Assembly: GCA_041917855.1 (NCBI GenBank)
Contig: JAYRWT010000072.1
Span: forward strand, 1-42,912
From: Patescibacteria group bacterium
GTDB lineage: Bacteria > Patescibacteriota > UBA1384 > CAILIB01
Direction of reading: 5' to 3'
Length of the DNA stretch: 42,912 nt
Below, piece by piece: positions 6,348-36,276 of this stretch (the first letter of the stretch is position 1; every line of letters starts with the position of its first letter). The position numbers were made by a program, and so were the translations under genes. Below the pieces are notes generated by a model. It was given only the letters and a program-made list of their open reading frames with translations, made no database searches and was not told where the DNA came from.

Positions 6348-6389
6348 TTATTCATACTTTAGTAATCTTTTGGTTATGCTAAGCTATTG

Positions 6390-6520
6390 ATGTCTGGATC
6401 GATAACATGCGATACCCATAGCCACATGGCGATGGTTTGCTCTCACACAAGGGCAACCATCGACAAATAGCGGGAGCAATCCTGTTATCGGTCCAGACAA
6501 CCTAGATGGTTGTCCTTTTG
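6390..6520 (+). ncRNA. Structured cis-regulatory leader RNA, copy 1 (unclassified attenuator/riboswitch-like element)
   Basis: Outer stem of 17 bp (6391-6407/6483-6499). Inner hairpin 6430-6440/6453-6462. Terminator hairpin 6496-6502/6508-6514 plus a T tract. Segment 6505-6515 can alternatively pair with 6451-6461. Compensatory changes relative to copy 2 at 25954-26090. Confidence 0.6.
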
Positions 6521-16039: not shown

Positions 16040-16047
16040 TCATCCTC

Positions 16048-16425
16048 CTAGTAACCCCACTGGTTCTGCCATTCGCGCATCTGGGAGATTTCCTTCTGCT
16101 GAGCAGAAATAATGTCGTCAGCCATCTTCTTGATCTCGTCGTGCTTGGCGTTCTTCTGGGCTTCCTTGGCCATCTCGACCGCACCCTGGTGGTGCTCGAT
16201 CATGGAGGAGAGGAAGGACTTGTCGAATTCATCACCAGACTTGCCCTTGAGCGTACCCATCATGTCGCCCATGCTCATGTCCATATGGCTGCCAGCGTTG
16301 CCACCGTTTTCATGCATCCCCATCATTCCCATCATGCCGTTATGGTTGAGTGAGGTCACGGCCAGGGTCAGGATGACGCCAGCCAGTAAGCCGATGATTC
16401 CGTAGAGTGCAGATTCCTTGTTCAT
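16048..16425 (-). CDS. DUF305-family protein with an N-terminal TM helix and a Met/His-rich segment
   Basis: The C-terminal IEHHQGAVEMAK...DIISAQQKEI pattern is DUF305-like. The segment MMGMMGMHENGGNAGSHMDMSMGDMMG suggests Cu(I) binding. Confidence 0.75.
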   Translation of the reverse strand: MNKESALYGIIGLLAGVILTLAVTSLNHNGMMGMMGMHENGGNAGSHMDMSMGDMMGTLKGKSGDEFDKSFLSSMIEHHQGAVEMAKEAQKNAKHDEIKKMADDIISAQQKEISQMREWQNQWGY

Positions 16426-16492
16426 GGTAATTTTTATTAGTTGTAATGCTAGTTCCAGTATACGCCGTTGGCCTGAAGCTGCTCCAGTGGCC

Positions 16493-17176
16493 CTACTTCG
16501 CCAGTTCCGCCTCGATAGCGTCGCGCAGCCCCTGGGTATACTTCACCTGCTTCCCGTTCACATAGAATGACGGTGTTCCTGTCACTCCCAAGGCCTCACC
16601 GTCGGCCAAATCACGGGAGAAGGTGTCGTTGTACCGGTTCTCATCGATTGCTTTTCGAACCTCATCCGCATTAATGCCCAACTCGCGGGCATATCCCACA
16701 ATGATATCTTCAGCCTGCTGCTTGGTTTTAGGGGTTGGCCCATCGGCACTCCACTGCTCCTGGTTCTCGAACAGCTTGTGGTGCATCTCCCAGAACTTGC
16801 CCTGCTTGCCGGCCTCTTCGGCGGCATTGTGCGCAATCTGGGCGTTCTTGTGGCTTGGAAGCGGGAAATTGCGGAAGACGAACTTCACGCTTTTGTCCTT
16901 ATACTCCTCCTCGATTTGTGTCACCTGGCCAAAGGCGAACTTGCAGGCCGGACACTGGTAATCGGCAAATTCAACTACCGTCACCTTGGCGTCTTTCGGC
17001 CCCAGGAAGTAACTGTCATCTCGCACTAACTGCCCGGCGTCGGCAAGGTCGGTAGCCGCTGAAGCCGGTCCGCTCGGATTGCTCTTTTCTGACTTAGCGG
17101 CGAACATAACCGCTCCGCCGATGAGAAGGACACAAAGTGCCCCGACTATACTTACTATCTTAACTTCGTTTGTCAT
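16493..17176 (-). CDS. DsbA/BdbD-type thiol:disulfide oxidoreductase (membrane-anchored)
   Basis: Thioredoxin-fold CPAC active site (YQCPACKF) and an N-terminal anchor. Confidence 0.85.
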   Translation of the reverse strand: MTNEVKIVSIVGALCVLLIGGAVMFAAKSEKSNPSGPASAATDLADAGQLVRDDSYFLGPKDAKVTVVEFADYQCPACKFAFGQVTQIEEEYKDKSVKFVFRNFPLPSHKNAQIAHNAAEEAGKQGKFWEMHHKLFENQEQWSADGPTPKTKQQAEDIIVGYARELGINADEVRKAIDENRYNDTFSRDLADGEALGVTGTPSFYVNGKQVKYTQGLRDAIEAELAK

Positions 17177-17615
17177 ATGGTTTGTTTAGGTAAATTGATA
17201 AGCCCATGGCGACTGTAATGAAGACGAAGGCCACGAGCGAGAGGAATGGAATGCTGATAAAGCCGAGCCACTCAATATATTTGGTCGTGCAGGACACCCC
17301 GAGGCTGCAGGGCGAGAGGGATTCAGTAATTACGCCCCAGGTCAGCAGGTTCTGGTACAGGGCAATGCCGGTACCGACAACTCCGAGTGGCAGAACATAG
17401 TACGGAAGGCGCTGGTCCCTCAGGATAATTCCTACCGCCATAATGAAGACGATCGGGTACATGAAGATCCGCTGCCACCAGCAGAGCGTACAGGGCGGGA
17501 AGTGCAAGATCTCGCTGAAATAAAGGCTCCCCAGCATCGAGGCGATGGCCGTAGCCCAGGAAAGGTACAGCAGCACCTTGATGACTAGCGCTTTGTTCTT
17601 CAGAATCCACTCCAC
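17160..17615 (-). CDS. DsbB/BdbC-type disulfide bond formation protein
   Basis: CTLCWWQR motif in the first loop, four TM helices and a second Cys pair (SPCSLGVSC). Confidence 0.85.
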   Translation of the reverse strand: MEWILKNKALVIKVLLYLSWATAIASMLGSLYFSEILHFPPCTLCWWQRIFMYPIVFIMAVGIILRDQRLPYYVLPLGVVGTGIALYQNLLTWGVITESLSPCSLGVSCTTKYIEWLGFISIPFLSLVAFVFITVAMGLSIYLNKPYDKRS

Positions 17616-17833
17616 TACGCCTCCTCTGGAAGATGGACGGTGTATTCCCCCAGCTCTTCGACCTCTTTCTTGAACGTCTGCCAGTCAACCGACCCGTCGT
17701 GTTCTATGAGGGTATTTCCACTCTCAAAGTCGACGGTGATCGATTGGATACCATGTTGCTCGCCTCCTACTTCTTCGATAAGCATCTTGCAGGCCTTGCA
17801 GTGGGTTCCTTGGATATGCAGTTCAGTTTTCAT
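17615..17833 (-). CDS. copZ: Heavy-metal-associated (HMA) copper chaperone, CopZ-like
   Basis: A 72-aa ferredoxin-like HMA domain with a GTHCKAC metal-binding loop. Confidence 0.8.
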   Translation of the reverse strand: MKTELHIQGTHCKACKMLIEEVGGEQHGIQSITVDFESGNTLIEHDGSVDWQTFKKEVEELGEYTVHLPEEA

Positions 17834-17843
17834 GGGTAATAAG

Positions 17844-19679
17844 TTAGCTAATGGTAATGTCGGCGACCGGTACGCCCATTGGGCAGGTAAGGTTCAGCTC
17901 GCCGGTCTTGGTCGGGGTGAAGTTGATCTGGTTCTTGCCCATCTTCAGCCGCTGGCCGATGTCGTAGTCAGAACCAACCACCGTATCCATGCAGCCGCTT
18001 ACGTCGGCCTGCACGTCAATCTCCAGGATGACGGGAATGCCTTTCTTAACCTTGAAGGTATTCGGGTAGAAGCCCCGCTCGTAAGTCACGGTCATGTTCA
18101 GCTTCTGCACCTCGCCGCTCGCTGCCGCTGGTGCGCTTGAGGCGGAAGGTAGGGGGGAAGCCGGGGTGTAATTCAGAGGAGTGGCACTAGCTGCCGCATC
18201 CGTGGTAGCCACGACGGTGATAGCAGCCCCTCTTGTGGTCATTCCCATCGAGCAGCTAAACGGGAAAGTACCTGTCTTATCAGGAGTAAACTCGACCGTC
18301 TTCGTGCCGCTTCGAGGCAGGACAGCAGAGATGTCAAACCCATCAGCTACCAGGCTTCTGGCACATCCCGCTGCCCCACTCCCCTCGATTCGCCACTCCA
18401 CCGGTACTCCTTGCCGGACGGTAAACTTGGCCGGTTCGTACTGGTAACCCTTCACCTTCATGGTGATGACCTGCTTGCCATTCTCCATTGGTGGAAGATC
18501 GGAAGCAGCAGTAGCCTGCTCCGAAGCCGTAGTGTTGGCCAGAATCGTTCCCAGGCTAATATTCGTACCAGCCAGAGCGAGTCCGTTCCCGATATTCGAG
18601 AGCCCAAGCAGCACCACGACCACCCCTGCGAAGCGGAAGAAATGCCGCTGAGTCGCACCCTTCAGGAAACTGGACAGCGCCGAAAGCGACATCAGGGCCG
18701 GAAGCGTCCCGAGGGAGAAGAAGAACATGGTCAGCGCTCCCACCGTAAAGCTACCCTGCGAAAGCACGTACAACTGCAGGGCCTGGGTAAAGCCGCAGGG
18801 CAGGAAGAAGGTGGCAGCCCCCAGGCCGAACGGTGCCGCCGGATGGTCGGAATTGCTGGAAGCGTCATGGACCCGGTGGGCGATGAACTTAGGCATCTTA
18901 GGCTGGAAACGGCGGAGCTGCGGGAAGATATTCAGAAGCTGGAAGCCCAGGAACACCATGATAAGGCTGGCGGCGATGGTCATCACTCCAGTCATGCGGG
19001 TGGAGAGGGTAAAGACCGATCCTACCGCCCCCACCAATCCTCCGAAAACGGTGTAGCCGATCACCCGACCAGCATTGAAGTAGAGGTGCGGCCGAAACTT
19101 CTTTATCCCCTCCATCTCGGGATGGGCTTCGGCGTAGCGTCCGGCTACGGCGAGCAGCAGGCCGCCAGTCACGGCAATACAGCTGGAAACCGCCGCCACC
19201 AAACCGATAAGAAACACAAAGCCGTAACTCATGTTCTCGCCCACGCTCAAGCCCTCAGGAATGAGCCTGAACTTGCTCAGGATTAGGTATGCACCCATCA
19301 CGATCAGGAATACCCAGAAGGTTTCCTTGTAGTCCTGGGCAGTCGTTTTGTGGACAGCCGGTTTCTTCTCACCTGGCCTCTGCTGGAAGGACGTTACGGT
19401 ATACTCGGTACCCTCTAACGCTTCCTGGAGCTGGTTAAGGTGCGGACGGCGGGAGTACCCCACGTCCACCCTGCCGGTAGCATGGTTGACCTTTACCGAA
19501 TCGATTCCCTCGATTTTCTTGAACTTTCTCTCAATGAGCACCTCGCAGCTGGCGCAGTGGGTACCGTGAACGGAAACGCACATCGTCCCGGGGCTTTCCT
19601 CCTGGGAGTAGTAGGCGCTTGGTTCCTGGTAGCTGACCTGCTGTCTGTGCTTTTTCTTGTGTCGATGTTTCTTGCTCAT
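17844..19679 (-). CDS. Fusion protein: HMA domain, TauE/SafE- or DsbD_2-type membrane domain, and two cupredoxin-like domains
   Basis: HMA loop GTHCASCE, about 7 TM helices, and two C-terminal repeats ending in SCSMGM and TCPMGV. The ATG at 19679 (MSKKHRHKKKH) is preferred over the TTG at 19706. Confidence 0.8.
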   Translation of the reverse strand: MSKKHRHKKKHRQQVSYQEPSAYYSQEESPGTMCVSVHGTHCASCEVLIERKFKKIEGIDSVKVNHATGRVDVGYSRRPHLNQLQEALEGTEYTVTSFQQRPGEKKPAVHKTTAQDYKETFWVFLIVMGAYLILSKFRLIPEGLSVGENMSYGFVFLIGLVAAVSSCIAVTGGLLLAVAGRYAEAHPEMEGIKKFRPHLYFNAGRVIGYTVFGGLVGAVGSVFTLSTRMTGVMTIAASLIMVFLGFQLLNIFPQLRRFQPKMPKFIAHRVHDASSNSDHPAAPFGLGAATFFLPCGFTQALQLYVLSQGSFTVGALTMFFFSLGTLPALMSLSALSSFLKGATQRHFFRFAGVVVVLLGLSNIGNGLALAGTNISLGTILANTTASEQATAASDLPPMENGKQVITMKVKGYQYEPAKFTVRQGVPVEWRIEGSGAAGCARSLVADGFDISAVLPRSGTKTVEFTPDKTGTFPFSCSMGMTTRGAAITVVATTDAAASATPLNYTPASPLPSASSAPAAASGEVQKLNMTVTYERGFYPNTFKVKKGIPVILEIDVQADVSGCMDTVVGSDYDIGQRLKMGKNQINFTPTKTGELNLTCPMGVPVADITIS

Positions 19680-19745
19680 AAAAATTACGCTTAATGAAAT
19701 TAGCAAAAGGAGCCTCTTACCAAAGAGGTCTCAGTCTGTAATTCC

Positions 19746-20186
19746 TTAAGCGTAGAGCAGCGGCTGAGCCTTGCCGGCCGCTAAGAAGAGAGCGAAGTAG
19801 TCGTGAAGGTTATCGTCAGGCGGATCCTTGCTTCCGTGAACGAAGCGAACATACAGCAGCGACTTGATATCAAACGGTGCGAAGATGAGCGTCGCAACCA
19901 AGATAGCGGCAAATAGTGCCAACATTCCCAGGATCGAACTGCTGCCTGGGATTCCGGTAAATGTACTCTGCCACCAGGCCAGATGCTCCCCTACTTGCAT
20001 TGGACAGATCCGAGGCGCTCCGCCGTGGGCCTCGTGGCTTGCGGTAGATGCCATCGAGCAGGCCACTTCGACATTGGCCATTCCTCCCATGTCCAGGCTG
20101 ACCAGGCCAACCAGCAGGAAAGCTGCCGCCGTGAATGCGGCAAGCGACCTTACGAACTTAAGTTTACTGGCAATGCGGTTAAACAT
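19746..20186 (-). CDS. Hypothetical membrane protein with a Cys/His/Met-rich loop
   Basis: Two TM segments flank ACSMASTASHEAHGGAPRICPMQ. It lies within the copper cluster. Confidence 0.6.
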   Translation of the reverse strand: MFNRIASKLKFVRSLAAFTAAAFLLVGLVSLDMGGMANVEVACSMASTASHEAHGGAPRICPMQVGEHLAWWQSTFTGIPGSSSILGMLALFAAILVATLIFAPFDIKSLLYVRFVHGSKDPPDDNLHDYFALFLAAGKAQPLLYA

Positions 20187-20224
20187 GGAAAGTATTTTGT
20201 TGGCCCTATTATACCACCTTTTGC

Positions 20225-20443
20225 CTAGGCCTGCTTCTTTTCCGTATCCGAGTGGCAGTCTTCGTGACCGTTTTTATTCATGAAAACCATTCCTATGAGC
20301 ATCGAGACCGGACAGATGGCTAGCACCGCAAAGGGAGCGAGAGCCACGATGCCGCTCCGCACCCCTGGGAATAGAAGGTAGCCGAGGGCAAGCGCAAGGC
20401 CTGCCCCGATAGCTACTTTGATCATGGTTTTTGGACTGCACAT
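20225..20443 (-). CDS. Small membrane protein, DUF2933-like
   Basis: A 72-aa protein with two TM helices, an internal CP motif and a His/Cys tail (GHEDCHSD), as recalled for DUF2933 proteins in metal-resistance loci. Confidence 0.55.
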   Translation of the reverse strand: MCSPKTMIKVAIGAGLALALGYLLFPGVRSGIVALAPFAVLAICPVSMLIGMVFMNKNGHEDCHSDTEKKQA

Positions 20444-20453
20444 ATACCCTCCT

Positions 20454-23400
20454 TTACTTAGCTAATGCGGTTTGCTGCGGCATCTGGAAGCCAGTCCCCA
20501 CGAAGTGCATGGAATCCAGGTCGGTCTTAGTCTCGGGAAGCACTCCAGCCACGATTACGTCCTGGCCGAAGAACCCTCGGATGATGTCGCCCTCATTTTT
20601 GAACAGCTTCTCATCCTGCATCATCTTCGCCTCCTTGGCTCCGATGTAGACCGGTACCAGGCGGGCCGATCCGACCGCTACGGGCTGGAGTCCGGCTTCG
20701 CTTACGTTTCCGGCGAGCTTCTCGGGAACGTTGCCGCCATTCACGATGTAGAACAGCTTGGGAACGCCCTGGTTAAGCAGTACCGGCAGATCGGCAGACG
20801 CCTGTATCTTCCCGTAGGTGGACTTACCCATGATGTGGTAGCTGTCGATCTCGGTTCCCGTAGGCTCCAGGATGCCGACCACCTTCATGCTAGGTACTCC
20901 GAAGAAGTTCTGGATGGTATCGCCAGGCCCCTTGATAAGGCCTTCCTCTATCATCATGGCCGCTTCAGATGAACCGATTATCATTTCGTCGTTATCAGAA
21001 AGCTTGGTCGTGCCCTCCTTCGCCTTCATGATCTGGGTATCGATCGTTTCCGTACCAAGGAACAGCTTAGGAGTGCCTTCGGCGAACGCGACTTTGCTCT
21101 GGCCAGCAGTAAGGTAGTTGCCCGCCTGCCTAATGGTCTTTGCAGAAGCAACCACAGTACCCATACCTCCCTCATCCATGCGGGAGCTGAACCGGGCGAA
21201 CTCGAAGAACATGCCGGAGAAGGCAATCACCATTACGAGCGGGGCAAGCTGGGATACCCAGTTGCGGCGTCCCGGCCGGTAATAGCGGAGGGTCAGTGAG
21301 TTGGCCACCACCGAGATCGAAGAAAGGGCCATGGCCAGTCCTGCCAGCTCCGGCTTCAATACCAGACCGAAGGCGGCAAACACGCGGGCGGCAATCGGAA
21401 TGCCCATCACGTTGTAGAAGAGGGCGAAGAACATGTTCTGCTTGATCTTGGCCATCGTCTCTTTAGACAGCCGAATGGCGTTCACCACGTCGTTCAGATC
21501 GTTCTTGATTATGACGATTCCGCCGGCCTCCATGGCTACGTCGGTACCTGAGCCCATGGCAATGCCGAGGTCTGCTTGGGCAAGGGCTGGAGCATCATTA
21601 ATGCCGTCCCCTACCATGGCGACTTTCTTACCTGCAGCCTGTAGTTTCTTGACTTCGTTGGCCTTGTCCTCAGGCAGCACTTCGGCCAGGACGTTCCTGA
21701 TGCCGACTTGCGAGGCAATGGCCTCGGCCGTGCGCCGGTTGTCTCCGGTAATCATATAAACCTCGATTCCCATCTTCTGGAGCTTGGCTACCGCCTGGGC
21801 AGACGTATCCTTTACCGTATCGGCTACAGCCACCACCCCGATCACCTCTTCTTTCGTAGAGAGGATCATGGCGGTCTTGCCCTGCTCCTCAAGCCGGGTC
21901 ACCTTGCGGGAGATGCGGCTCAGGTCATGGTTCAACACCTCCTCGGCAAGCCTGCGGTTGCCAAAGTAATAGAGAGTTCCGTTTACAATGCCTTGCACGC
22001 CATGGCCGGGTATTGCCTGGAAGTCGGTAACCTCATCAAGCGTTACGCCTTCTTCGCCCGCATAGGAATAGATGGCTTCGGCCAAAGGGTGCTCGGACGA
22101 CTTTTCAAGCGAAGCGGCAACCGTGAGCACCTCGTCCTCGTCGCTTGATCCGAAGCTTAGGATATCGGTCACCTCGGGCTTTCCCTTGGTGATGGTGCCG
22201 GTCTTGTCGAATATGACGGCGTTCACCCGGTAGGCAGTTTCCAGCGGCTCGCCTCCTTTTACCAAGATGCCGTGCTCAGCACCTTTACCCGTGCCTACCA
22301 TGATGGCAGTAGGAGTGGCCAAGCCTAGGGCGCAAGGGCAGGCGATCACGATCACCGCCGTGAAGGCCATGAGGGCGAATCCAATACTTGCGCCTAGCAG
22401 GAAGTACCATACTAGGAAGGTAAGGATGGCTACGCCGATAACGGCCGGGACGAACCAGGAGGATATCTTGTCGGCAAATGCCTGGATTGGTGCCTTTGAT
22501 CCCTGGGCATCCTCAATCAGCCGAATGATCTGGGCCAGAGCGGTTTCCGACCCTACCCGGGTTGCCCGGAATTCGAAGCTTCCCGTCTTGTTTATGGTCG
22601 CACCGGTTACGGTGTCGCCTTCCCGCTTCTCAACGGGCATGGACTCGCCGGTAAGCATGGACTCGTCCACGGCCGATGAACCCTTGGTGACCACGCCGTC
22701 TACCGGCACCTTTTCCCCTGGCCGTACCAACACGATGTCCCCCTCGACTACCTCTTCAACCGAGATGTCGTAGGTTTCGCCATCCCGGATAACCCGGGCC
22801 GTCTTGGCTTGCAGTCCCATCAGCCGCTTGATGGCGTCAGAGGTGCGGGCCTTGGCCTTCAGCTCGAGCAGCTTACCAAGCAGCACGAAGGTAATGAGGA
22901 AGGCGGCCGTTTCGAAATAGATTTCCGGAATCTTCCCGGCAAGCCCTATCAAGGAGTTATATTTGAACACGTAGGCCAAGAAGTTGAAGAGACTGTAAAA
23001 GTAGGCGGTGGATGTTCCAATGGCGATTAAAGAGTCCATGTTAAAGGTACGCATCCGCAGTGCCGACCACATGCCCTTGTAGAATCCCACCCCGGCAATA
23101 AATTGGACTGGCGTCGCAAGGATCAGGGAGATTATCGCGAAGTACGGAGCAATCGAGGCGGTACCGGGTAACCACTTAAAGAAGTCGGTAAACATGAAGT
23201 ACAGCATCGGCAGAGAGAAGAGGAAACTGAACCAGAACTTGCCCTGCAGCTTCTTCAGTTCGAATGCTCGCTTACGGTTTTCGAATTCGCTATCCTTTTC
23301 CTCAAGTACTGCAGCCTTGTAGCCAGCTTTCTGAACAGCGGCAGTAAGGTCGCTTAACGAAGCAGAATTCTCATCAAAGATTACGGCAGCCTTCTCGGCG

Positions 23401-24026
23401 GCAAAGTTAACGTTGGCCTGAGAAACCCCTGGCACCTTTTTCAGACCACGCTCAATGAGCGTGGCACAGGAAGAGCAGTGCATTCCAGATAATGAGAGTG
23501 CAACTTTACGGCGAGGATTCTTTTCTTCCGAATCGTTATCTTCGTGGGTGACCACATGGCCTGCGCCCTCTTCTTTTTGGGGCGCACCGAGTGAGCGCTC
23601 AATAGCCGTAGGAACACTAAGCAGCTGTACTAGCCGATCCAATACCCCTTTAGCGGAAGACGGCTGAATATCCAGACTCTTCTCGTTCTTTATTTCCCCA
23701 TCAAAATAGGGGTTTCCTCCCGCGTCGGTTCGGACAACCCCCTTTGCTTCAATGGTAGATTCAAGCCGGATCGACACCTGCTCGGCAGGTTCTTCGGTAT
23801 GTTGCTCAACGGACTGCACCTTGGCCGTGTAGCCGGTATCCTTGATGGCGGCCAAAACTTCTTTTTCCGAGGTGAGGTCTGAGTTTACGCTGACGGTTCC
23901 CGATCCTCCGGGAACGTCGACAGTAACTTCCCCTACTCCGGGAAGCTCGGAGAGGCTGCGCTTGATGAGCTTCTCGCAGGAGGAGCAGTGCATGCCTTCG
24001 ATTGATAATGTAAGGGTCTGGGTCAT
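20454..24026 (-). CDS. copA: Copper-translocating P1B-1 ATPase CopA with two N-terminal HMA domains and a C-terminal extension of about 270 aa
   Basis: GMHCSSCE occurs twice. [17 protein letters not shown] and [10 protein letters not shown] are present. After the last canonical TM there is an extra TM and a duplicated soluble module (20457-21269). Confidence 0.93.
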
Positions 24027-24040
24027 ATGTTCCTTACCTA

Positions 24041-24057
24041 TACCTATGGTGTGGGTA
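24041..24057 (-). promoter_or_regulatory. Imperfect CsoR-type operator just upstream of copA
   Basis: TACCTATGGTGTGGGTA differs at 2 positions from the palindrome at 24401-24417 and ends 15 nt before the copA ATG. Confidence 0.4.
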
Positions 24058-24102
24058 CGATTATGGGTAAATAAAATGGGTTAGAAAGATTCATCGCTCG
24101 GC

Positions 24103-24375
24103 TTACTTGTTTGCGAGCTTAGTGACCTGGAGGATCTCGGCGATCATCGCCTGCTTCCGCTCAGGAGTGTCTGCCTCGACGGATTCGCGCAGGCAGTGGT
24201 TCAGGTGGTTCTCCAAAAGGGTTGAGTGGGCGGACCGAAGGAGGCCGAGCACAGCCAGGTTCTGCTGAATGATATCGATGCAGTACTCGTCTTCCTCTAC
24301 CATTTTTATTACTTTTCCAAGGTGGGTATGTGCCTTCTTGAGGGCGGTCATAATCCGTTCGTCAGGTTGATGCAT
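24103..24375 (-). CDS. csoR: CsoR/RcnR-family metal-sensing transcriptional repressor
   Basis: A 90-aa all-helical protein with Cys (YCIDI) and the ...NHLNHC pattern, matching the CsoR C-H-C ligand set. It lies directly upstream of copA. Confidence 0.85.
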   Translation of the reverse strand: MHQPDERIMTALKKAHTHLGKVIKMVEEDEYCIDIIQQNLAVLGLLRSAHSTLLENHLNHCLRESVEADTPERKQAMIAEILQVTKLANK

Positions 24376-24450: not shown

Positions 24451-25737
24451 CTAGCTAAGTATTACTTTCCCTCCTAATAACTTTAGCTGGGCCTGAAGCA
24501 TTCCAAGAATATCCTTCCGCTCCTCATGGCTTCCCTGAGATAGAACGAACCGGGCGTAATTTCTATAGTTCTCAATGCCGAGTTCACTCTTCAATTCCTG
24601 ATTTGCACTAAATACGCCGGAGGTGAACATGGAAAACCGCTTCATCTCGCCCATCAGCTTTGACTTCATGGCCGCCTCGTCAAATGGTACCTGGTCAATA
24701 AGCTCCAGCAATTGTTTCGATAATTCTTCTTCCCTGATATATGGTTCCCTGCACGGAGTTTCTCCTTTGTTTGTACAGTGGTAGTAGATATACTTCGATA
24801 CCGACCCGTTCTTCAGCTTCTTATGCTTTTCCGAGGCCGTGATGCCGTAGCCGCAGTTTCCGCAGCGCATGAATTTGGTGAAGGCAAACTCCCGACTTCC
24901 TGGCCGGAGCTTCGGAGCGGTAGTTAAGGCCTGCCTCGCCTGCAAGAAGAGCTCCTTGGTAATGATCGGGTCGTGGCTGCCCTTGTACAGCTTCCCGCTT
25001 CCTACCGGGTATTCGAACTCGCCGTGGTAGAAGGGGTTCTCCAGTATCTTGTAGACCATCGAGAGGCAGAGCTTCTTATCATTTTTGGTGCGGAGCAATC
25101 TTTCTTGATTCAAGAATCTAAGCAAGGGTCTACCGGTCACCCCCTCGTAGGCAACCTTCTCGAACATTTCCCTGATGATCGGTGCCCTTGCCGGATCCAC
25201 AAGAACCGTCTTCGACCCTCTCGGAGCATACCGCTGATTTAAGTAGCCGATGGGAGCCTGACAGGGGCGCCAGCCGTTCTCGCACTTGGTCTTCATGCCT
25301 CTTAGGATATTCTTCGCCCGGTTGTCGTTCTCTAATTTTGCCTGACTGCAGAGGATCATGAGAAGGAACTTGTCATTAGGAGTGTTCCTGAAAACCTGCC
25401 CCGGCGTCTGGATGGCCAAGAGCTTTCCCGAATCCATCAGGTCTACCAGCATCCCGAGGTCCCCGGCATTTCTAGAGAGCCGGTCAGGCGCCCAGGTGAG
25501 AATGGCATTAAACTTTCCCGCTTTTACGTCCGCTACCACCGTATTGAATACCGGACGATTACCTGATGCCTTAGCCGAGTGGCTTTCCTGCCTGGTTTCA
25601 ATGACATTCAGACCCTGCTGCTCGGCGACTACTCCCATCTCCTTGATCTGCGAATCGATGGAGAGCATCTGGCGCTCTTCCGATTCGCTGCTCTTCCTCG
25701 CGTAGAGGACATACTTTAACTCTGGCTCTTCCGGCAT
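24451..25737 (-). CDS. Large serine recombinase B
   Basis: YARKSSESEERQ..SIDSQ, WAPDRLSRN and CGNCG..YYHC. The ATG at 25737 (MPEEPELKYVLYARK) aligns with the start of paralog A; the GTG at 25857 would add 40 unmatched residues. Confidence 0.92.
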   Translation of the reverse strand: MPEEPELKYVLYARKSSESEERQMLSIDSQIKEMGVVAEQQGLNVIETRQESHSAKASGNRPVFNTVVADVKAGKFNAILTWAPDRLSRNAGDLGMLVDLMDSGKLLAIQTPGQVFRNTPNDKFLLMILCSQAKLENDNRAKNILRGMKTKCENGWRPCQAPIGYLNQRYAPRGSKTVLVDPARAPIIREMFEKVAYEGVTGRPLLRFLNQERLLRTKNDKKLCLSMVYKILENPFYHGEFEYPVGSGKLYKGSHDPIITKELFLQARQALTTAPKLRPGSREFAFTKFMRCGNCGYGITASEKHKKLKNGSVSKYIYYHCTNKGETPCREPYIREEELSKQLLELIDQVPFDEAAMKSKLMGEMKRFSMFTSGVFSANQELKSELGIENYRNYARFVLSQGSHEERKDILGMLQAQLKLLGGKVILS

Positions 25738-25920
25738 ATGGCTTTGCTTACTTCTAGCTATACCAATCAATGCCCTGAAGGACTTACTAAGTCCAGGCAA
25801 ATTCCAGGTTGGAACCGCCTTTTGTGACCCTACAACTCGATCGCTTAGTACCTCCACCCCGCCCTAACAGCCAATACAATAGGAAGGGTGCAATTAAAGC
25901 TCCTACAGGTTAAAAAGATT

Positions 25921-25948
25921 TTGATATGGGTCACATATCTGCTACGAT
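25921..25948 (+). promoter_or_regulatory. Candidate promoter of leader RNA copy 2
   Basis: TTGATA (25921-25926), a 16-nt spacer, then TACGAT (25943-25948). The predicted start near 25955 coincides with the first base of the outer stem. Confidence 0.4.
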
Positions 25949-25953
25949 ACAAG

Positions 25954-26090
25954 TGTCTGGATCAACAACTTGTTGTAAACACCTACCCATCTTTTGGGAG
26001 TGGTTGTAGCCAAAAACGGGCAACCACTCAACAAGCATCAGGCTACAACCTGTTGTTGGTCCAGACAACCTAGAGTGGTTGTCCTTTTTA
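25954..26090 (+). ncRNA. Structured cis-regulatory leader RNA, copy 2
   Basis: Outer stem 25954-25969/26052-26067 (16 bp). Inner hairpin 25998-26006/26021-26029. Terminator 26064-26070/26077-26083 plus TTTTT. The alternative pairing 26018-26029/26073-26084 is also possible. Confidence 0.6.
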
Positions 26091-26119
26091 TTTATTCGTA
26101 ACCAAAGAAAGGAGCCTAT

Positions 26120-26578
26120 ATGGCAGATGGAGAAAAGAAACCAATTTACAAGAAGTGGTGGTTCTGGGTACTGGCCGTGCTAATACTCGGAGCGATCGCT
26201 TCAAGCAGTAACAAAAGCAATACCGAAACGGTGACCAGCACCGGAGAGAAGACCACTACCAGTTCGGGTGAGCAGACGGCTGCTTCTACCGGGACCCCAG
26301 TACCAGCTAAGGAGAAGATAACTATCTCCAACAGCGCCTACAAGGACAAGGGGTACGGCATGTATACCGTCGTCGGAGAAGCCACCAATAACGACTCGAC
26401 CAAGCATACTATGACACTGAAGGCCACCTTCTACGACGCGAATGGGAAGATCCTCGGCACCGCCTCGGGAGCCCTTAACGACCTGGAAGCCGGCCAGACC
26501 AAGACATTTGAACTGCTGACTACCGATACTGTCACTGGTTACAAGGACATGAAGGTCCAGGTAGACAGCCTGTTCTAG
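26120..26578 (+). CDS. FxLYD-domain membrane-anchored protein
   Basis: N-terminal TM helix, S/T-rich linker, and a C-terminal beta-rich domain with TFYDANGKILG...GQTKTFEL, typical of FxLYD domains. AGGAG lies 7 nt upstream of the ATG. Confidence 0.75.
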   Translation: MADGEKKPIYKKWWFWVLAVLILGAIASSSNKSNTETVTSTGEKTTTSSGEQTAASTGTPVPAKEKITISNSAYKDKGYGMYTVVGEATNNDSTKHTMTLKATFYDANGKILGTASGALNDLEAGQTKTFELLTTDTVTGYKDMKVQVDSLF

Positions 26579-26585
26579 TCAAACG

Positions 26586-26617
26586 AAAAAGAGCCATTTG
26601 AATGCAGGCTCTTTTTC
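26586..26617. terminator. Bidirectional rho-independent terminator
   Basis: AAAAAGAGCC pairs with GGCTCTTTTT around a 12-nt loop, between convergent genes. Confidence 0.75.
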
Positions 26618-26621
26618 GTGC

Positions 26622-26837: not shown

Positions 26838-26919
26838 ATCTCTCCTTTCGCTGGTTAATTATTGATCACTACAACAGGTGCCAGGAAGGGCTGGTGAAGT
26901 CCAGCCCTGTCCCGGTTTC

Positions 26920-28497
26920 CTAGCCAATCATCCTATTCCAGGTCCTGCCCGATCGCCGCCTGCCAAAGGTGAGCGGCCTATGGTCGATTCCGAAGCTCAG
27001 GCGGTCGTCACGGTCTGCCCAATCCTCGTCATCGTCGTCCCGATCGAAGGGTACGAAGAAGATGCCGAAGCTACTGCCCTTGTTCTCCTCGATCGCCTTA
27101 AGCACCAGGATGGCGAAGGCATCGGCCAGGTCGTCGTGCTTTTCCACCCCGAAGCCGGTCAGCTGCTCGATCAGGCGCTCGCAGCCGGTCCTCGGGAACT
27201 TTACCCCTCCCGACTGGATGAGCGAGGTGGTAAGAGCCAGTCGGCTCCGCTTGTCGCTTGTTCCCACCTGCACCCCTTCGGCGTCGAAGTCCTCGAGCTC
27301 AAGCTGCTGGATGAAGGCCTTCTGGTAGCCTACCTCCTCAATGTACAGCTTGGTCTTCTCGCCCCTGCCCAAGGTCACCGATACCGCCTTCGCCCGCTTG
27401 AGTGTCTCCGGAAAGTCCATCCGCTCGTTCACCGGATTGGGGACGATGTAGATTACCTGCTCCGTGCCATACCCGAAGGTGTGCCCCGACACCATCGCCG
27501 TGTAGTCCGCCGACGCCTTCTCGGAGATCGCAAGGTCGATACCCGTGGCCGAGTAGTTCAAAGTAACGCCGGAGCCTGGAGCTGGAAGCTCGTCGTAGTA
27601 CTGTATCCACTCGGGTCTGATTACCCGGTCCTCATCGGCGATGATCCGAAGCAAATACTCCCGCTGCCACGCCGACTCCGAGCCGGTGTTCCGGCGCATC
27701 TCGTCAATCAGGTCCTGGGTTCCGTACTTTCCCGGCCAGAGGCTGATCCCGTCGTTATCCAGTAGCGGATAGCCTTTGAACACACCGTCCATCAGGTTTT
27801 CCTCGATCCGCTTGCGAAGCCGCATCAGCAAGGAATCCTCATGCAGCAAATTTCCAACAATAACTCTTTTCGTATTCTGGTCGCCGCAGGGAATCACCTC
27901 TCCCGTTAACCAGTCATAGGTCTTGTTCCTGCCCTCTCTCGTCTTTACCGACTGCAGGTCCTCCACGTCATCGCAGATGATCAAATCAGGCCTATACTGC
28001 CCGTGTTTGATTCCCCGAATGCTCGTTTCCGAAGATGCGGCCATGATCTTTGCCCCGAACTTCGGCAGTACCAAGGCGGTCACGCCCCACTCGTCTGACT
28101 GGTACTCAAACGGACCCAGGTCGGCCCTTAAGAGTTCGTTCGTTTCCAATTCTCTTTTCAAATTGACCAGGTGCTGCCTGGCCTGCTGCTGGGTCTGGGA
28201 CAATATTAGTACGAATTTTTTCCCTTGCTTGCCCGTAACCGCCCAGATGGGGTAGCTGAGGGTGAATATCGTGCTTTTGGCCGATCCTCGGAAAGCCACA
28301 ATCACGGCAGTTTTCAGGTCCCGGTTTTCCGTAATCTCGAACATCTCCCGTTGGAACGGGGCGGTCTCATGGGTGACGTACTGGGAGAAGTAGAGGTGGA
28401 AGAACCAGTAATGGCTCTGGGCCGCTACCTCTTTCCTGACTTTGCGCTGGGTCCTGATCTGCTCCAAGGCCGGTGCGGGCAATAGTGTGTTTTCCAT
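26920..28497 (-). CDS. Phage terminase large subunit (TerL)
   Basis: Walker A-like FRGSAKST, Walker B LIICDDVED, and a C-terminal RNaseH-like nuclease region with DDLADAF. Confidence 0.85.
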   Translation of the reverse strand: MENTLLPAPALEQIRTQRKVRKEVAAQSHYWFFHLYFSQYVTHETAPFQREMFEITENRDLKTAVIVAFRGSAKSTIFTLSYPIWAVTGKQGKKFVLILSQTQQQARQHLVNLKRELETNELLRADLGPFEYQSDEWGVTALVLPKFGAKIMAASSETSIRGIKHGQYRPDLIICDDVEDLQSVKTREGRNKTYDWLTGEVIPCGDQNTKRVIVGNLLHEDSLLMRLRKRIEENLMDGVFKGYPLLDNDGISLWPGKYGTQDLIDEMRRNTGSESAWQREYLLRIIADEDRVIRPEWIQYYDELPAPGSGVTLNYSATGIDLAISEKASADYTAMVSGHTFGYGTEQVIYIVPNPVNERMDFPETLKRAKAVSVTLGRGEKTKLYIEEVGYQKAFIQQLELEDFDAEGVQVGTSDKRSRLALTTSLIQSGGVKFPRTGCERLIEQLTGFGVEKHDDLADAFAILVLKAIEENKGSSFGIFFVPFDRDDDDEDWADRDDRLSFGIDHRPLTFGRRRSGRTWNRMIG

Positions 28498-31842: not shown

Positions 31843-32484
31843 ATGAACACCATCCAAGACCGCCTCCTCTCCCTTGCGAGCCAGCACGACCTCAGCAAAC
31901 TGAGCCTTAGACAGATCGCCAAGATGGCAGGCGTCGAGCACGCCCAGACCGTCAAATACCACCTGAAAAAGCTGGTGGACGCTGGGAAGATCCGAAGCGT
32001 AGGCGGTGCGATCAAGGTGGTAAGCCGAGGGGTTGAGGGAAGCCTCCTTTCCCTACCAATACTTGGGAGCGCTAACTGCGGGACTGCTGCACGATTCGCT
32101 GAAGAGCAGGTAGAAGGCTTCATCCAGGTATCCTCCAGGCTGCTGCCGTCCAGCCGAGACCTGTTCGTAGTCCGGGCCGTCGGCAATTCCATGAACCAGG
32201 CAGATATTTCCGGTCGCACGATTGAGGACGGCGACTACGTGGTGGTGAAGAATACCACCGAGGCTCCCTGCAATGGTGACTATGTCCTCTCGATCATTGG
32301 CGGCTGCGCCAACATAAAGCGGTTTTACCAGGATACCACCCACGAAACCGTCCTGCTCATCTCAGAATCAACTGAGAAGGAGCTACACCCACCTATCGCC
32401 ATCCACCCCGAGGACGATTATATAGTGAACGGCAGGGTCGTGAATGTGATCAAGATGCAGGCAGTGGCCGGAGGGGAAGCATGA
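31843..32484 (+). CDS. LexA/CI-type repressor (winged-helix DNA-binding domain plus S24 self-cleaving peptidase)
   Basis: N-terminal LexA-type wHTH (LSLRQIAKMAGVEHAQTVKYHLKKLVDAGKI), a linker (PILGSANCGTAARFAEE), the Ser nucleophile motif GNSM and the Lys motif ANIKRF. Confidence 0.85.
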   Translation: MNTIQDRLLSLASQHDLSKLSLRQIAKMAGVEHAQTVKYHLKKLVDAGKIRSVGGAIKVVSRGVEGSLLSLPILGSANCGTAARFAEEQVEGFIQVSSRLLPSSRDLFVVRAVGNSMNQADISGRTIEDGDYVVVKNTTEAPCNGDYVLSIIGGCANIKRFYQDTTHETVLLISESTEKELHPPIAIHPEDDYIVNGRVVNVIKMQAVAGGEA

Positions 32485-33407
32485 CCGAGGCCGAATTTGA
32501 AGCATTGCTCAGGAATTGGTCAGGACCCTCAAGCGACACCGAGCAGGAGAAGCAGGAAAACGCCGAACGTCTTATCGGGGAAGCCATCCGTGAGCATGAA
32601 GGATTGGCTGCAAGGAACGTCCAGGTATTTGCCCAAGGCTCATACCGCAACAATACCAACGTAAGGCAGGACAGCGACGTCGACATCTGTGTCTGCCTGT
32701 ACGATTCGTTCTTTTACGACCACTCCTCCCTGCCCGCATTCAGCACCAGCGAGGCAGGCATATCGGACAATCCCTACCCTTATAACCAGTTCAGGACGGA
32801 CGTACATACCGCACTTATCGACAAGTTCGGCAGACCATCAGTAAAGAACGGGAACAAGGCGTTCGACGTCAAGGAATCCTCAACTCGGATCGCCGCGGAC
32901 GTCGTACCCTGCTTCGAGTACCGCGAGTACACCTTCCGCGATTATAACGGCGTTTATTCTTACGAATCTGGGACCCAGCTCATCACGGGTGAAGGGCAGG
33001 TCATCATCAACTGGCCTGAGCACCATTACCGGAACGGCGTTGCGAAGAACAACGTCACGGGAAAGCGTTTCAAGTCCGTGGTCCGGATTTTGAAGCGACT
33101 GCGCTACCGCATGGCAGACCAGGGAGTATACGCTGCGGACCGGGTTCCTTCCTACCTGGTTGAGTGCCTTGTCTGGAATGTATCTGACGATCTTTTCAAT
33201 GACACCTACCTATCAAAAGACGTTTACAACGTGCTTGCTATTCTAAAGGTCTTCTTGGCAAACCCATACAATTATCCTCACGTAAACAACTTCATGGAGG
33301 TGAATGGCCGCAAGCGCCTCTTCGACCCAGGCCAATCGTGGACACGGGAAGACGCCCTCGCATTCATAAATGCCGCTTACGCCGAATTTGCTAGGATGGC
33401 GCCATGA
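32481..33407 (+). CDS. cdnE: CD-NTase (SMODS nucleotidyltransferase), CdnE-like
   Basis: QGSYRNNTNVRQDSDVDICV (GS...DxD; Asp codons at 32676-32684), a third acidic motif AADVVPCFEY, and later NWPEHHYRNGVAKN and PSYLVECLVWNV, as recalled for clade E cyclases. The start overlaps the repressor stop (ATGA) after GGAGGGGA. Confidence 0.8.
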   Translation: MTEAEFEALLRNWSGPSSDTEQEKQENAERLIGEAIREHEGLAARNVQVFAQGSYRNNTNVRQDSDVDICVCLYDSFFYDHSSLPAFSTSEAGISDNPYPYNQFRTDVHTALIDKFGRPSVKNGNKAFDVKESSTRIAADVVPCFEYREYTFRDYNGVYSYESGTQLITGEGQVIINWPEHHYRNGVAKNNVTGKRFKSVVRILKRLRYRMADQGVYAADRVPSYLVECLVWNVSDDLFNDTYLSKDVYNVLAILKVFLANPYNYPHVNNFMEVNGRKRLFDPGQSWTREDALAFINAAYAEFARMAP

Positions 33408-34033
33408 AGAGCAGCCCAATAACACCCCTTGCCCAAAAGGCCTCGCTATTCTTTTTTGCCCTTTTGTGGGCGGCATTCGTTATCTATAAAAACGAAAGCC
33501 TTACCTTCAACGCTGATTCTCTTATGCAGCTACCTGCCGCCTACGGCGTCTATGTTATATGTACAGAAATCTTCAAAAGGTGGCTGTGGCGCTTGTCCTT
33601 CCTGCGAGGGTGGATAGTTAGGATTCCCAATATCCAGGGAACCTGGTCCGGAACCCTCCAGACCACCTGGAAAGACGCGGACGGCAATACCCCAGGTCCT
33701 ATACCTATTACATTTGCCGTTCGACAAACCTTGGACTCGGTAAGCTGCCGTCTCTATACCCAGGAATCGGGCAGCTACAGCACGTCAGCCCAGATCGAAG
33801 AGGATGACGCGAGTGGCATTTTCCGACTGCATTTCTCCTACCTCAATACCCCGAAGTCATCCGTGCAGCATCGGAGCGAGATCCATGCGGGTGCCGCAGA
33901 CCTGCAGATAATCGAGAAGCCGTCCAAACGTCTCGCTGGCAATTACTGGACGAGCCGAAAGTCCACCGGGGATATGGAGCTGACTTTCAAGTCATCTGAG
34001 ATCGCTCAGCAATTTGAAGATGAATTAGCATAA
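33404..34033 (+). CDS. cap15: Cap15-type (S-2TMbeta) CBASS effector: two N-terminal TM helices plus a beta-rich C-terminal domain
   Basis: The TM helices are ASLFFFALLWAAFVIY and LPAAYGVYVICTEIF. The C-terminal region has GTWSGTL...AGNYWTSRKSTGDMELTF. The start overlaps the cyclase stop (ATGA). Confidence 0.7.
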   Translation: MKSSPITPLAQKASLFFFALLWAAFVIYKNESLTFNADSLMQLPAAYGVYVICTEIFKRWLWRLSFLRGWIVRIPNIQGTWSGTLQTTWKDADGNTPGPIPITFAVRQTLDSVSCRLYTQESGSYSTSAQIEEDDASGIFRLHFSYLNTPKSSVQHRSEIHAGAADLQIIEKPSKRLAGNYWTSRKSTGDMELTFKSSEIAQQFEDELA

Positions 34034-35259: not shown

Positions 35260-36276
35260 GTGCTACCTACTACTATGTCCGCTAAAAGTGATTCCTATAC
35301 TTCGCGGGAGACATGGTTACAGTACCGTGCATCTCCCTCTGATAAGCTGCGCAACGAAATTGCCCAGCAAAACTACCGCTTGGTTCCTCTCGTTCTGAGT
35401 CGCGCTTTTAGTCAAATCCCTATTGAGTGGCAAGAAGATTTGCTGCAAGAAGGATGGATTGGACTACTACGTGCGGTGGAACGATATGATTGTGACGATG
35501 AGAGCCAGGCGTCTTTTTCGACCTTTGCTTTCTACGTGATTCGTCAAAGTATGGGCCGCTACCTTGATAACACAAGAAGCACCATACGCCTACCTGTTCA
35601 TATCAGTGATCAGATTCGCCGAGTCGAAAGACTTCGGACAATCTATATCCATCAAAATGGTTCGGTTCCCAGTTTGGAGGAATTATCAGAGTTCACAGGG
35701 ATCCCGGAACTTAAACTCTTTGAGTTATCCCTGGCAGCAGATACTAGTAATCCTGGCTCACTTGAGGCCCCCATGGGCAGCGAGGACTCAGTCACACTCT
35801 ACGACCTACTGCAGAATCCTGATGCCACCGACCCGCTAACAGAACTACTCAGCAAAGGTGCGCAACACCTCCCTGACGACGTAAGCCTGGAAGCACTCTC
35901 GATGGTTCTCCGGGAGCTATCTACCGAAGAGTACGAAATCCTCATCCGCCGCGCCAATGAAGAAACTCTTGCTTTGATTGGACAACGATTTGGTTACACC
36001 CGTGAGTACATACGACAAAAAGAGAGTAGAGCCCTAGCCTATGTCCGTGGCCGCTTTGGCTACCGACTCATTGGTAAGGAAATCGTAAAGTGGGAGGAAG
36101 TTGCTCCTGTTGTGGTAAAAATCACACAGGAAACAAAGCCACCCACTAGATCTGAGTACTCAAAATCAAGCAATGAAAAGGTAGGACAACCAAAAAATCG
36201 CGTCCAACCAAAACCAAAGCGAGGATTGCGCTCAGAACTACGACGAGCCCTCGACAGGCTCAAACACAGGAAATGA
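35260..36276 (+). CDS. Sigma-70 family RNA polymerase sigma factor B
   Basis: Region 2 (EGWIGLLRAVERYD...FSTFAFYVIRQSMGRYL), region 3 (IRLPVHISDQIRRV) and the region 4 HTH (LALIGQRFGYTREYIRQKESRALAYVR), plus a K/P-rich tail. The start is either the GTG at 35260 or the ATG at 35275. Confidence 0.88.
   Translation: MLPTTMSAKSDSYTSRETWLQYRASPSDKLRNEIAQQNYRLVPLVLSRAFSQIPIEWQEDLLQEGWIGLLRAVERYDCDDESQASFSTFAFYVIRQSMGRYLDNTRSTIRLPVHISDQIRRVERLRTIYIHQNGSVPSLEELSEFTGIPELKLFELSLAADTSNPGSLEAPMGSEDSVTLYDLLQNPDATDPLTELLSKGAQHLPDDVSLEALSMVLRELSTEEYEILIRRANEETLALIGQRFGYTREYIRQKESRALAYVRGRFGYRLIGKEIVKWEEVAPVVVKITQETKPPTRSEYSKSSNEKVGQPKNRVQPKPKRGLRSELRRALDRLKHRK

Follow-up and report, generated by a model that had tools for sequence, protein, structure and literature searches.

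A structured leader RNA with its own promoter and terminator in recombinase-bearing integrative elements of Patescibacteria: a candidate conditional terminator of cargo genes

In the genome of a Patescibacteria group bacterium (assembly GCA_041917855.1, contig JAYRWT010000072.1), a long inverted repeat lies within positions 25921 to 26119, between the gene of a large serine recombinase, termed recombinase B, and a gene for a membrane-anchored protein with an FxLYD domain; a second copy stands elsewhere in the same 42,912 nucleotides (nt), which were analyzed in full and are referred to here as the window. The locus raises two questions: whether the symmetry belongs to a discrete RNA or is fortuitous DNA symmetry, and, if it belongs to an RNA, what that RNA does. 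An earlier reading of the sequence, referred to here as the original prediction, had favored an RNA-level switch transcribed from a promoter that starts at the first base of the stem. The flagged stretch is a genuine structured RNA of ~130 bases, equipped with its own promoter and terminator and not catalogued before. Its sequence comparison suggests, with about even confidence, a cis-acting conditional terminator, i.e., an attenuator-like leader, for the cargo genes of recombinase-bearing integrative elements of Patescibacteria.

The RNA belongs to a family of ~25 distinct members, ~115–150 nt in length, from Patescibacteria genomes and metagenomes, that includes both window copies. Copy 2 spans 25955–26089 on the plus strand (135 nt, counted from the predicted transcription start through the last base of the U-run; covariance model score 122.9 bits), and copy 1 spans 6392–6519, also on the plus strand (128 nt; 102.8 bits; seen as well by the terminator scan). 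The two copies are 76% identical, and this pair alone displays two compensatory changes in the closing helix. Both fold far more stably than dinucleotide shuffles: the z-score is −5.0 in copy 2 and −5.2 in copy 1, and none of 200 shuffles did as well. Across the family, the RNA forms an island of conservation, 90–99% identical between loci with unrelated flanks; for instance, in loci L012, L022, L024, and L025, RNAs that are 95–99% identical sit between unrelated flanks and are followed by differing genes.

Most members were found with a pattern derived from the shared 3′ end, which fixes the two segments of the terminator-like hairpin, termed c and d below. In genome contigs, this pattern retrieved seven true homologues, all in metagenome-assembled genomes titled Saccharimonadia, Berkelbacteria, or Patescibacteria, in addition to three chance matches. 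In a slightly altered form, it matched 19 metagenomic contigs, all 19 of which carry true homologues, and three pattern scans of IMG/VR returned chance matches or already known members and nothing else. A covariance model built on 22 distinct sequences recovered just the two known copies from the window and nothing additional from the homologous loci; its minus-strand matches are the symmetric helices at low score. A further search avoided the bias of a DNA pattern by scanning 80 IMG/VR loci that encode a protein related either to recombinase B or to the terminase-like product of 26920–28497. Four of these 80 loci contain divergent versions of the RNA, amounting to three distinct sequences (L102, identical to L103; L107; and L034), and a model rebuilt to include the divergent members found no others among the same loci.

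In kind, the RNA is a terminator-containing structured leader; as a family, neither Rfam 15 nor the searched literature offers a counterpart. At gathering thresholds, no Rfam 15 family matched the RNA anywhere in the window, and the families that failed to match include the c4 antisense RNA, the lysM-TM7, DUF805, and int-alpA motifs, 6S RNA, SRP RNA, and the known riboswitches. A permissive E-value search gave only chance matches in the region of copy 2 (none above 14 bits, where the threshold is 65.6) and nothing meaningful on copy 1 itself; the best match in the neighborhood of copy 1, MIR390, scores 25.7 bits where 77 are required and sits on the terminator of the upstream helicase gene. 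Along the same lines, the Rfam 15 search of fourteen homologous loci returned tRNAs alone. Neither topic-based nor sequence-string searches of the literature turned up a description of this leader RNA, and no described regulatory RNA of Patescibacteria emerged from the literature covered.

The architecture consists of a closing helix, P1, and five segments that form a chain of alternative partners in the order e-a-b-d-c. In copy 2, the P1 5′ strand (25955–25969) pairs with a 3′ strand at 26052–26066, whose final GAC is common to the terminator stem. The original prediction had described a 16-bp outer stem starting at 25955; the starting point holds, but the helix has 15 base pairs (bp), as a sixteenth (T25954:A26067) requires a transcript that begins one base earlier. 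Inside P1 follow the variable hairpin arm P1a (25983–26000); segment a, GAGTGGTTGTAGCC (GAGUGGUUGUAGCC), at 25998–26011; segment b, GGGCAACCACTC (GGGCAACCACUC), at 26018–26029; and segment e, GGCTACAACC (GGCUACAACC), at 26041–26050, which was recognized from the inverted repeat, covariation, and RNAalifold. Segment c, GACAACC, at 26064–26070, is the 5′ strand of the terminator stem, and segment d, GAGUGGUUGUCC, at 26073–26084, can pair with either b or c. The terminator scan places the terminator-like hairpin c:d (GACAACC/GGTTGTC, loop TAGAGT) at 26064–26083; d ends at C26084 and the U-run occupies 26085–26089. The same parts are found on the plus strand of copy 1: P1 at 6392–6407 and 6483–6498, a at 6431–6444, b at 6451–6461, e at 6472–6482, c at 6496–6502, d at 6505–6515, and, from the terminator scan, the terminator-like hairpin at 6496–6514 with the U-run at 6516–6519.

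These segments can be arranged into two mutually exclusive folds. Fold I consists of the a:b hairpin and the c:d terminator hairpin, which is followed by the U-run. In fold II, P1, the arm P1a, and helix P2, formed by a and e (the P2 3′ strand), build a three-way junction, and segment b in the P2 loop pairs with d in the 3′ tail to form a 12-bp pseudoknot. The arm P1a forms in constrained folds of all 25 members, with a variable sequence and length.

Both folds are backed by covariation. Fold II was examined in 18 model-aligned sequences that include the divergent members: 97.9% of the pair cells are standard pairs, 23 of the 37 pairs display compensatory, i.e., two-sided, changes, and none of 500 shuffles reached these values, with slid controls only ~40% paired. 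A MAFFT alignment gave similar covariation. By helix, P1 has compensatory changes in 9 of its 15 pairs with 98.9% of cells paired, P2 has them in eight of nine pairs, and the pseudoknot b:d has them in 5 of 12 pairs with 98.6% of cells paired; the count for b:d is independent of the alignment method because the pseudoknot was left out of the model structure. RNAalifold, run on the same alignment, returned P1, P2, and a short c:d helix. As for fold I, 81–84% of the cells of the a:b hairpin are paired and five to six of its pairs changed on both sides, several of them in the 5′ extension of a, a part that is unused in a:e. The c:d helix is 100% paired and invariant among the members found by pattern; in L102 and L107, CAACC/GGUUG is replaced by CAGUC/GGCUG with pairing kept, and L034 has yet another form that still pairs, the changes being one- or two-sided. 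The few conserved unpaired positions are adenines in A-rich linkers, which would suit minor-groove contacts in the pseudoknot. Thus, the two exclusive pairings both covary, as expected of the switch put forward in the original prediction, whose switching function is itself read from sequence.

The structure also has a strand. The column pair 82/158 is G-U in 18 of 18 sequences and the pair 9/133 is U-G in 13 of 18. On the other strand, such pairs would be A-C mismatches, which assigns the structure to the plus-strand transcript and not to duplex DNA. Together with the proportion of standard pairs and the compensatory changes, these strand-specific pairs bear out the claim that the element is a discrete RNA rather than a chance symmetry of DNA.

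Where this transcript begins can be predicted from the promoter. TTGATA-16-TACGAT at 25921–25948, the promoter proposed originally, was recovered by a consensus scan as the sole sigma-70-like site in 25700–26200, on the plus strand: the −35 element TTGATA lies at 25921–25926, a TG precedes the −10 hexamer, and the extended −10, TGCTACGAT, at 25940–25948, falls in the register of the family. The same scan called no sigma-70-like promoter for copy 1, which nonetheless has an extended −10, TGCTAAGCT, at 6377–6385 on the plus strand, in the register of the family consensus and at the same distance to the stem. When 25 distinct upstream regions were compared, with the G of GUCUGG set as +1, the conserved positions were T−15 (19 of 25), G−14 (18), T−12 (20), A−11 (21), and T−7 (23). 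This extended −10, TGnTAnnnT, stops 6 nt short of the first stem base in nearly all members, and its fixed distance implies a transcription start at −1 or +1. A start at the first base of P1, near 25955 as had been proposed, is therefore a supported prediction.

At the opposite end, every member has the shape of a terminator: a stem of 6–8 bp with an energy of −9 to −11 kcal/mol, followed by 4–7 U. All 25 sequences can form all four helices, with mean energies of −10.5 kcal/mol for c:d, −20.1 for b:d, −16.2 for the a:b hairpin, and −19.0 for a:e. The c:d helix and U-run are present throughout the family, and c:d excludes both b:d and the foot of P1; b:d, too, abuts the U-run. The nested minimum-energy fold is P1 plus a:b, and among partial transcripts of copy 2, a:b is dominant in every one from 76 nt on. 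Enforcing the full 7-bp terminator places the structure only 0.5 kcal/mol above the minimum in 19 of the 25 members. Fold II, whose energy was taken as that of the constrained nested fold with the b:d duplex added, comes out 3–15 kcal/mol under the nested minimum before any pseudoknot penalty. Such penalties are usually 7–10 kcal/mol, and the two folds are thus roughly balanced. These energies suggest that the local hairpins, a:b and then c:d, would be kinetically favored and that fold II would be the more stable end state, reached through strand exchange. Single-stranded footholds for this exchange may be offered by the apical end of a and by the terminator loop, which is the 5′ part of d.

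Downstream of the U-run, all 25 distinct members have a co-oriented open reading frame (ORF), often with a Shine-Dalgarno sequence, that begins 11–114 nt past the U-run and, in 23 of the 25, at most 50 nt past it. At this spacing, a promoter of their own would not fit, and these ORFs must be transcribed through the terminator. In the window, copy 2 precedes the FxLYD-domain gene (26120–26578, plus strand; NF038353, 47 bits against a cut-off of 23), which starts 30 nt past the U-run behind the Shine-Dalgarno sequence AGGAG at 26110–26114. Copy 1 lies, as originally described, between a helicase gene (3638–6298) and a membrane-protein gene (6546–7163, plus strand), whose product has two predicted transmembrane segments and no Pfam or NCBIfam match. 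The two cargo proteins are unrelated to each other (BLASTP E = 1.7). Across the family, the proteins encoded downstream are DUF805, DUF4352 (twice), RDD, SHOCT with DUF4429, CAP, FtsK-gamma, an endonuclease/exonuclease/phosphatase (EEP) protein, a NucS-like fragment, FxLYD, and several proteins without a family. The idea that the RNA and an exported protein form a conserved pair is qualified by this diversity: many unrelated genes take the place of one family. What these proteins tend to have in common is membrane association. A crude hydropathy test predicts a transmembrane segment in 19 of 24 first downstream proteins (20 with the shorter hydrophobic stretch of FxLYD), compared with 28% of the other ORFs in the same loci, the cases not being phylogenetically independent.

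Some further features of this downstream region deserve mention in their own right. In L017 and L020, the first ORF encodes a tiny hydrophobic peptide of 54 and 40 codons, respectively, that begins 12 and 24 nt past the U-run and is reminiscent of type I toxins; elsewhere, the first proteins have 90–330 residues. A 16-nt inverted repeat, TAACCAAAGAAAGGAG at 26099–26114 and CTCCTTTCGCTGGTTA at 26842–26857, gives one ribosome-binding-site context to both ends of a two-gene unit made up of the FxLYD gene and a small minus-strand ORF. Between these two genes lies a perfect 13-bp bidirectional terminator (26583–26619).

Taken together, the co-orientation of close, promoterless ORFs, the terminator form, and two balanced, covarying folds make a conditional terminator the best explanation. 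The position in a 5′ untranslated region near a co-oriented ORF and the covariation-backed structure are those of riboswitch and attenuator leaders. In a plausible sequence of events, (i) a sigma-70-type extended −10 promoter would fire at the first base of the 15-bp closing helix; (ii) the a:b hairpin would form first as the RNA emerges, followed by c:d, whose 7 bp abut the U-run and borrow three bases from the foot of P1; and (iii) the partner met by d, which would depend on the exchange of a:b for a:e, would decide the outcome. The leader would thereby set the share of polymerases that run on into the promoterless cargo gene. If the long-range helix b:d fails to act inside the polymerase exit channel, fold II would read through and fold I would terminate; should b:d instead match or surpass c:d as a terminator, c:d being weak and a rival of the P1 foot, the logic would be reversed or termination would be constitutive. 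What the sequences show is the family, the promoter register, both sets of pairings, the terminator form, and the close, co-oriented ORF; conditional termination, and with it any read-through fold and trigger, is an inference. The trigger seems more likely to be a protein factor or a kinetic signal (for example, the speed or pausing of the polymerase) than a metabolite, because there is no conserved pocket and the genes share no common pathway. The hallmarks of a metabolite-binding riboswitch were looked for in the family and not found: no conserved unpaired pocket is evident, and the genes that follow belong to unrelated families.

Several observations weigh against a conditional terminator. 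Segment d can always find a partner: b, c, or, more weakly, e. A helix would thus abut the U-run whichever fold is adopted, and b:d could act as a terminator of its own; in that case, there is no read-through state, and termination control is not the point. The downstream genes have no common function, which is unusual for a sensing leader, and no ligand pocket is evident in the family alignment. Loops and linkers, including the a-b linker, vary even between copies that are 97–99% identical. The covariation of c:d rests on the three divergent sequences, as the pattern used for most members fixed both c and d. Finally, the ORFs of L004 and L007 start 108–114 nt downstream and could carry their own promoter.

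The main rival, clearly less probable than a conditional terminator yet a serious contender, is a stand-alone, stable small RNA (sRNA) of ~130 nt. Termination would then be constitutive, with c:d forming first and b:d subsequently locking the 3′ end, so that the 5′ end would be buried in P1 and the 3′ end in the pseudoknot. The alternative hairpins would be folding intermediates only, and the downstream gene would be expressed through leakage only. Such an sRNA would act in trans or bind a protein of the element or of its host, possibly as an immunity RNA similar to the CI RNA of phage P4 or as a partner of the recombinase, a sigma factor, or RNA polymerase. In the P4 CI RNA, seqB is complementary to both seqA and seqC, and the complementarity of b to the upstream a and the downstream d is comparable. 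The promoter and terminator of its own, the island of identity between unrelated flanks, the ever-available partner of d, which makes termination look fail-safe, and the functional disparity of the downstream genes all fit an sRNA. On the other hand, a free-standing sRNA gene needs neither a co-oriented ORF in 25 of 25 members nor the close spacing in 23 of them that excludes a separate promoter. Matches to b or d with at most two mismatches occur elsewhere in the window at chance level, with no extra targets, and the c4/CI-type models of Rfam are unmatched. Furthermore, an 8-bp core of b:d is common to both window copies, which predicts cross-reaction and not heteroimmunity. An sRNA thus accounts for the strong conservation and the fail-safe d but not for the invariant orientation and spacing of the ORF.

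A bolder version of the conditional terminator is unlikely but worth stating. The RNA would be the first regulatory class specific to mobile elements of the candidate phyla radiation (CPR) and a true sensor of a small molecule, an ion, or host contact. It would gate the surface or membrane cargo of episymbionts by toehold-driven strand exchange, with the pseudoknot capturing the 3′ strand of the terminator. In a variant, it would be a P4-like immunity RNA, with the specificity between co-resident elements set by the triply covarying extension of a, b, and d.

Slightly less probable still is a constitutive leader that does not switch at all, in which P1 at the 5′ terminus would block 5′-end-dependent decay, a weak terminator would damp and insulate the expression of potentially harmful membrane cargo, and the alternative hairpins would be only co-transcriptional intermediates. 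Here, the predicted start at the first paired base, which leaves no single-stranded 5′ end, the weak 7-bp terminator stem (mean −10.5 kcal/mol), and the heterogeneous, mostly membrane-bound cargo noted above would all find a place. However, four helices kept by compensatory changes, including a 12-bp pseudoknot, exceed what a stabilizer and a leaky terminator need, and the near-equal energies of the folds look tuned.

A DNA-level function is improbable. The palindrome GACAACC-N5-GGTTGTC, or the whole folded strand, would serve the serine recombinase as a recombination or cassette-insertion site, in a platform likened to an integron, i.e., a recombinase, an outward promoter, an attachment site, and swappable promoterless genes. 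The recombinase does usually lie upstream and divergent, and similarity between loci does end at the U-run, with differing genes behind near-identical RNAs. Nevertheless, the strand-specific G-U pairs, which become A-C mismatches on the opposite strand, the fixed-distance promoter, and the U-run are features of an RNA, and the recombinase is 0.1–4.5 kb away with genes intervening in many loci. Neither the covariance model nor an inverted-repeat search found a second site, half-site, or repeat after the cargo gene in the window, and the cassette model is therefore not supported. An integron-like platform in the proper sense was likewise rejected: there is no repeated boundary site, and the recombinase is of the large serine type. 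Integron integrases are tyrosine recombinases.

The weakest alternative is ribosome-mediated attenuation through a mini-ORF that starts at the stem and encodes a peptide beginning MSGS. Both mini-ORFs (6390–6470 in copy 1 and 25953–26009 in copy 2) are present as first described, each opening with ATG or GTG two bases ahead of the stem and staying open for 18–26 codons; across the family, only 15 of 27 members have a start codon at −2 to +1 (the others have AGG, CTG, GAG, TAG, TCG, or ACG), and the open frame varies from 0 to 52 codons, mostly 4–8. As neither the start codon, the ribosome-binding site, nor the peptide is conserved, with the shared ‘SGS’ a mere translation of the conserved stem, no Shine-Dalgarno sequence, and a −10 element that sets the start at or past the codon, such attenuation is rejected as very nearly excluded, and the original preference for regulation at the level of RNA stands.

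How does a conditional terminator of this kind compare with known systems? One close likeness is to the pseudoknotted terminating riboswitches (fluoride/crcB, ZTP/pfl, and preQ1-I): there, as is proposed here, a covarying, pseudoknotted 5′ leader competes with a terminator near the ORF, and the terminator stem shares bases with the foot of P1 or its equivalent. In contrast to these, the RNA described here has no Rfam match, no evident pocket, and no common pathway downstream, is confined to mobile elements, and has a pseudoknot that takes the 3′ rather than the 5′ strand of the terminator. Similarly, in trp-type attenuators, the pairings 1:2 and 3:4 compete with 2:3 much as e:a and b:d compete with a:b. 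Here, however, there is no leader peptide, a fifth segment, c, is a second local partner for d, and the equivalent of segment 1 (e) stands between those of 3 and 4, which makes one state a pseudoknot.

Likenesses also extend to RNAs of plasmids and phages. Gultyaev, Franch, and Gerdes reportedly showed in 1997, by coupled covariations, that the mRNAs of the hok/sok family follow a programmed folding pathway. As in those mRNAs, one segment covaries with two partners, metastable local hairpins come first, and the stable fold is a long-range pairing that closes the 5′ end. Unlike in hok/sok, there is no antisense RNA and, apart from the two ORFs of 40–54 codons, no small toxin downstream, and the proposed output is termination and not the activation of translation after 3′ processing. 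The CI RNA of phage P4 and the c4 RNAs of phages P1 and P7 are also small RNAs in the operon leaders of mobile elements, with a central sequence that pairs both ways and a pairing tied to premature termination. In the present family, by contrast, Rfam c4 is unmatched, all partners lie within one 130-nt RNA, and there are no other targets in the window. Finally, in the lambda unit of PR′, 6S RNA, and tR′ acted on by Q, and in HK022 put, a promoter likewise makes a short terminated transcript ahead of read-through genes, and an RNA element directly follows the promoter. However, no Q-, N-, or put-like component was identified here, single cargo genes take the place of a late operon, and the 6S RNA of lambda is not a conserved fold. 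What is unusual in the present family is the combination of a five-segment chain, a pseudoknot capturing the 3′ strand of the terminator, a start exactly at the closing helix, and a portable unit placed before varied membrane cargo.

The genomic setting of the RNA is that of an integrative element. Recombinase B is encoded at 24451–25737 on the minus strand, divergent from the RNA; it has the Pfam domains Resolvase, Recombinase, and Zn_ribbon_recom and is 56% identical to recombinase A. The RNA had been said to fill most of the gap between recombinase B and the FxLYD gene; with its promoter, the 135-nt RNA takes up ~45% of the 382 nt. Across the family, a large serine recombinase is the commonest upstream neighbor, found at 14 of 29 RNA sites, which is almost all of those where the upstream sequence is long enough; it usually points away from the RNA and lies 0.1–4.5 kb off, with other genes between in many loci. 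The other upstream divergent proteins form no cluster, have no Pfam family in common even at E = 1, and offer no candidate RNA-binding partner. At six sites, as in the window, terminase-like, small helix-turn-helix, and ParB-methyltransferase genes lie convergently downstream. The RNA had been described as a conserved part of this family of elements, and its co-occurrence with the recombinase family was the check suggested at the time. Seen from the RNA, the association holds, as the recombinase is usually found upstream; seen from the recombinase and terminase genes, it does not, as only 4 of the 80 related loci carry the RNA. The RNA is thus not an obligate partner of the recombinase family, and, by this comparison of loci, only some of these integrative elements include it.

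Other observations concern the elements themselves. In four RNA loci, a tRNA gene adjoins or overlaps the recombinase gene at its 3′ end (L003, 1432–1503; L007, 5983–6054; L015, 5498–5566; and L027, 7329–7400), which suggests integration into tRNA genes; the Rfam 15 search found no tRNA gene in the window. Two loci from one metagenome, L021 (4780–4953) and L022 (256–434), have an identical 50-nt promoter region, RNA variants that are 76% identical, and differing a/b/d extensions and downstream genes, a pattern that hints at recombination within or beside the RNA.

In the window, each element module encodes a sigma-70-family factor (1991–3457 and 35260–36276), the second followed by a DndB/DpdB-like gene (36278–37285). 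A LexA/S24-like repressor gene (31843–32484) precedes a CBASS-type oligonucleotide cyclase gene (32481–33407; PADLOC E = 8.5e-106) and a 2TM effector gene (33404–34033; E = 6e-63), so that the second module carries an anti-phage system. Between the two modules lies a metal (copper-type) resistance island (13904–24375), judged from translations alone, with P-type ATPases at 13904–16039 and 20454–24026 (the latter with a ~300-residue C-terminal extension), a CsoR-like repressor at 24103–24375, as well as DsbA-like and VKOR/DsbB-like genes. In the helicase (3638–6298), the C-terminal half contains about eight tandem repeats of ~55 residues, ‘GDWL..VGKS..W....L....E.R......YPP’, with a weak match to a KorB domain, and may be a repeated DNA-binding module.

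Patescibacteria are a very large group of mostly uncultured, host-dependent, ultra-small bacteria. A well-supported RNA family with a clear transcription unit is a ready candidate for the biochemistry of conditional termination. As a portable promoter-leader unit, it may show how integrative elements control the display of their cargo at the cell surface, and its five-segment architecture could inform the understanding of co-transcriptional strand exchange.

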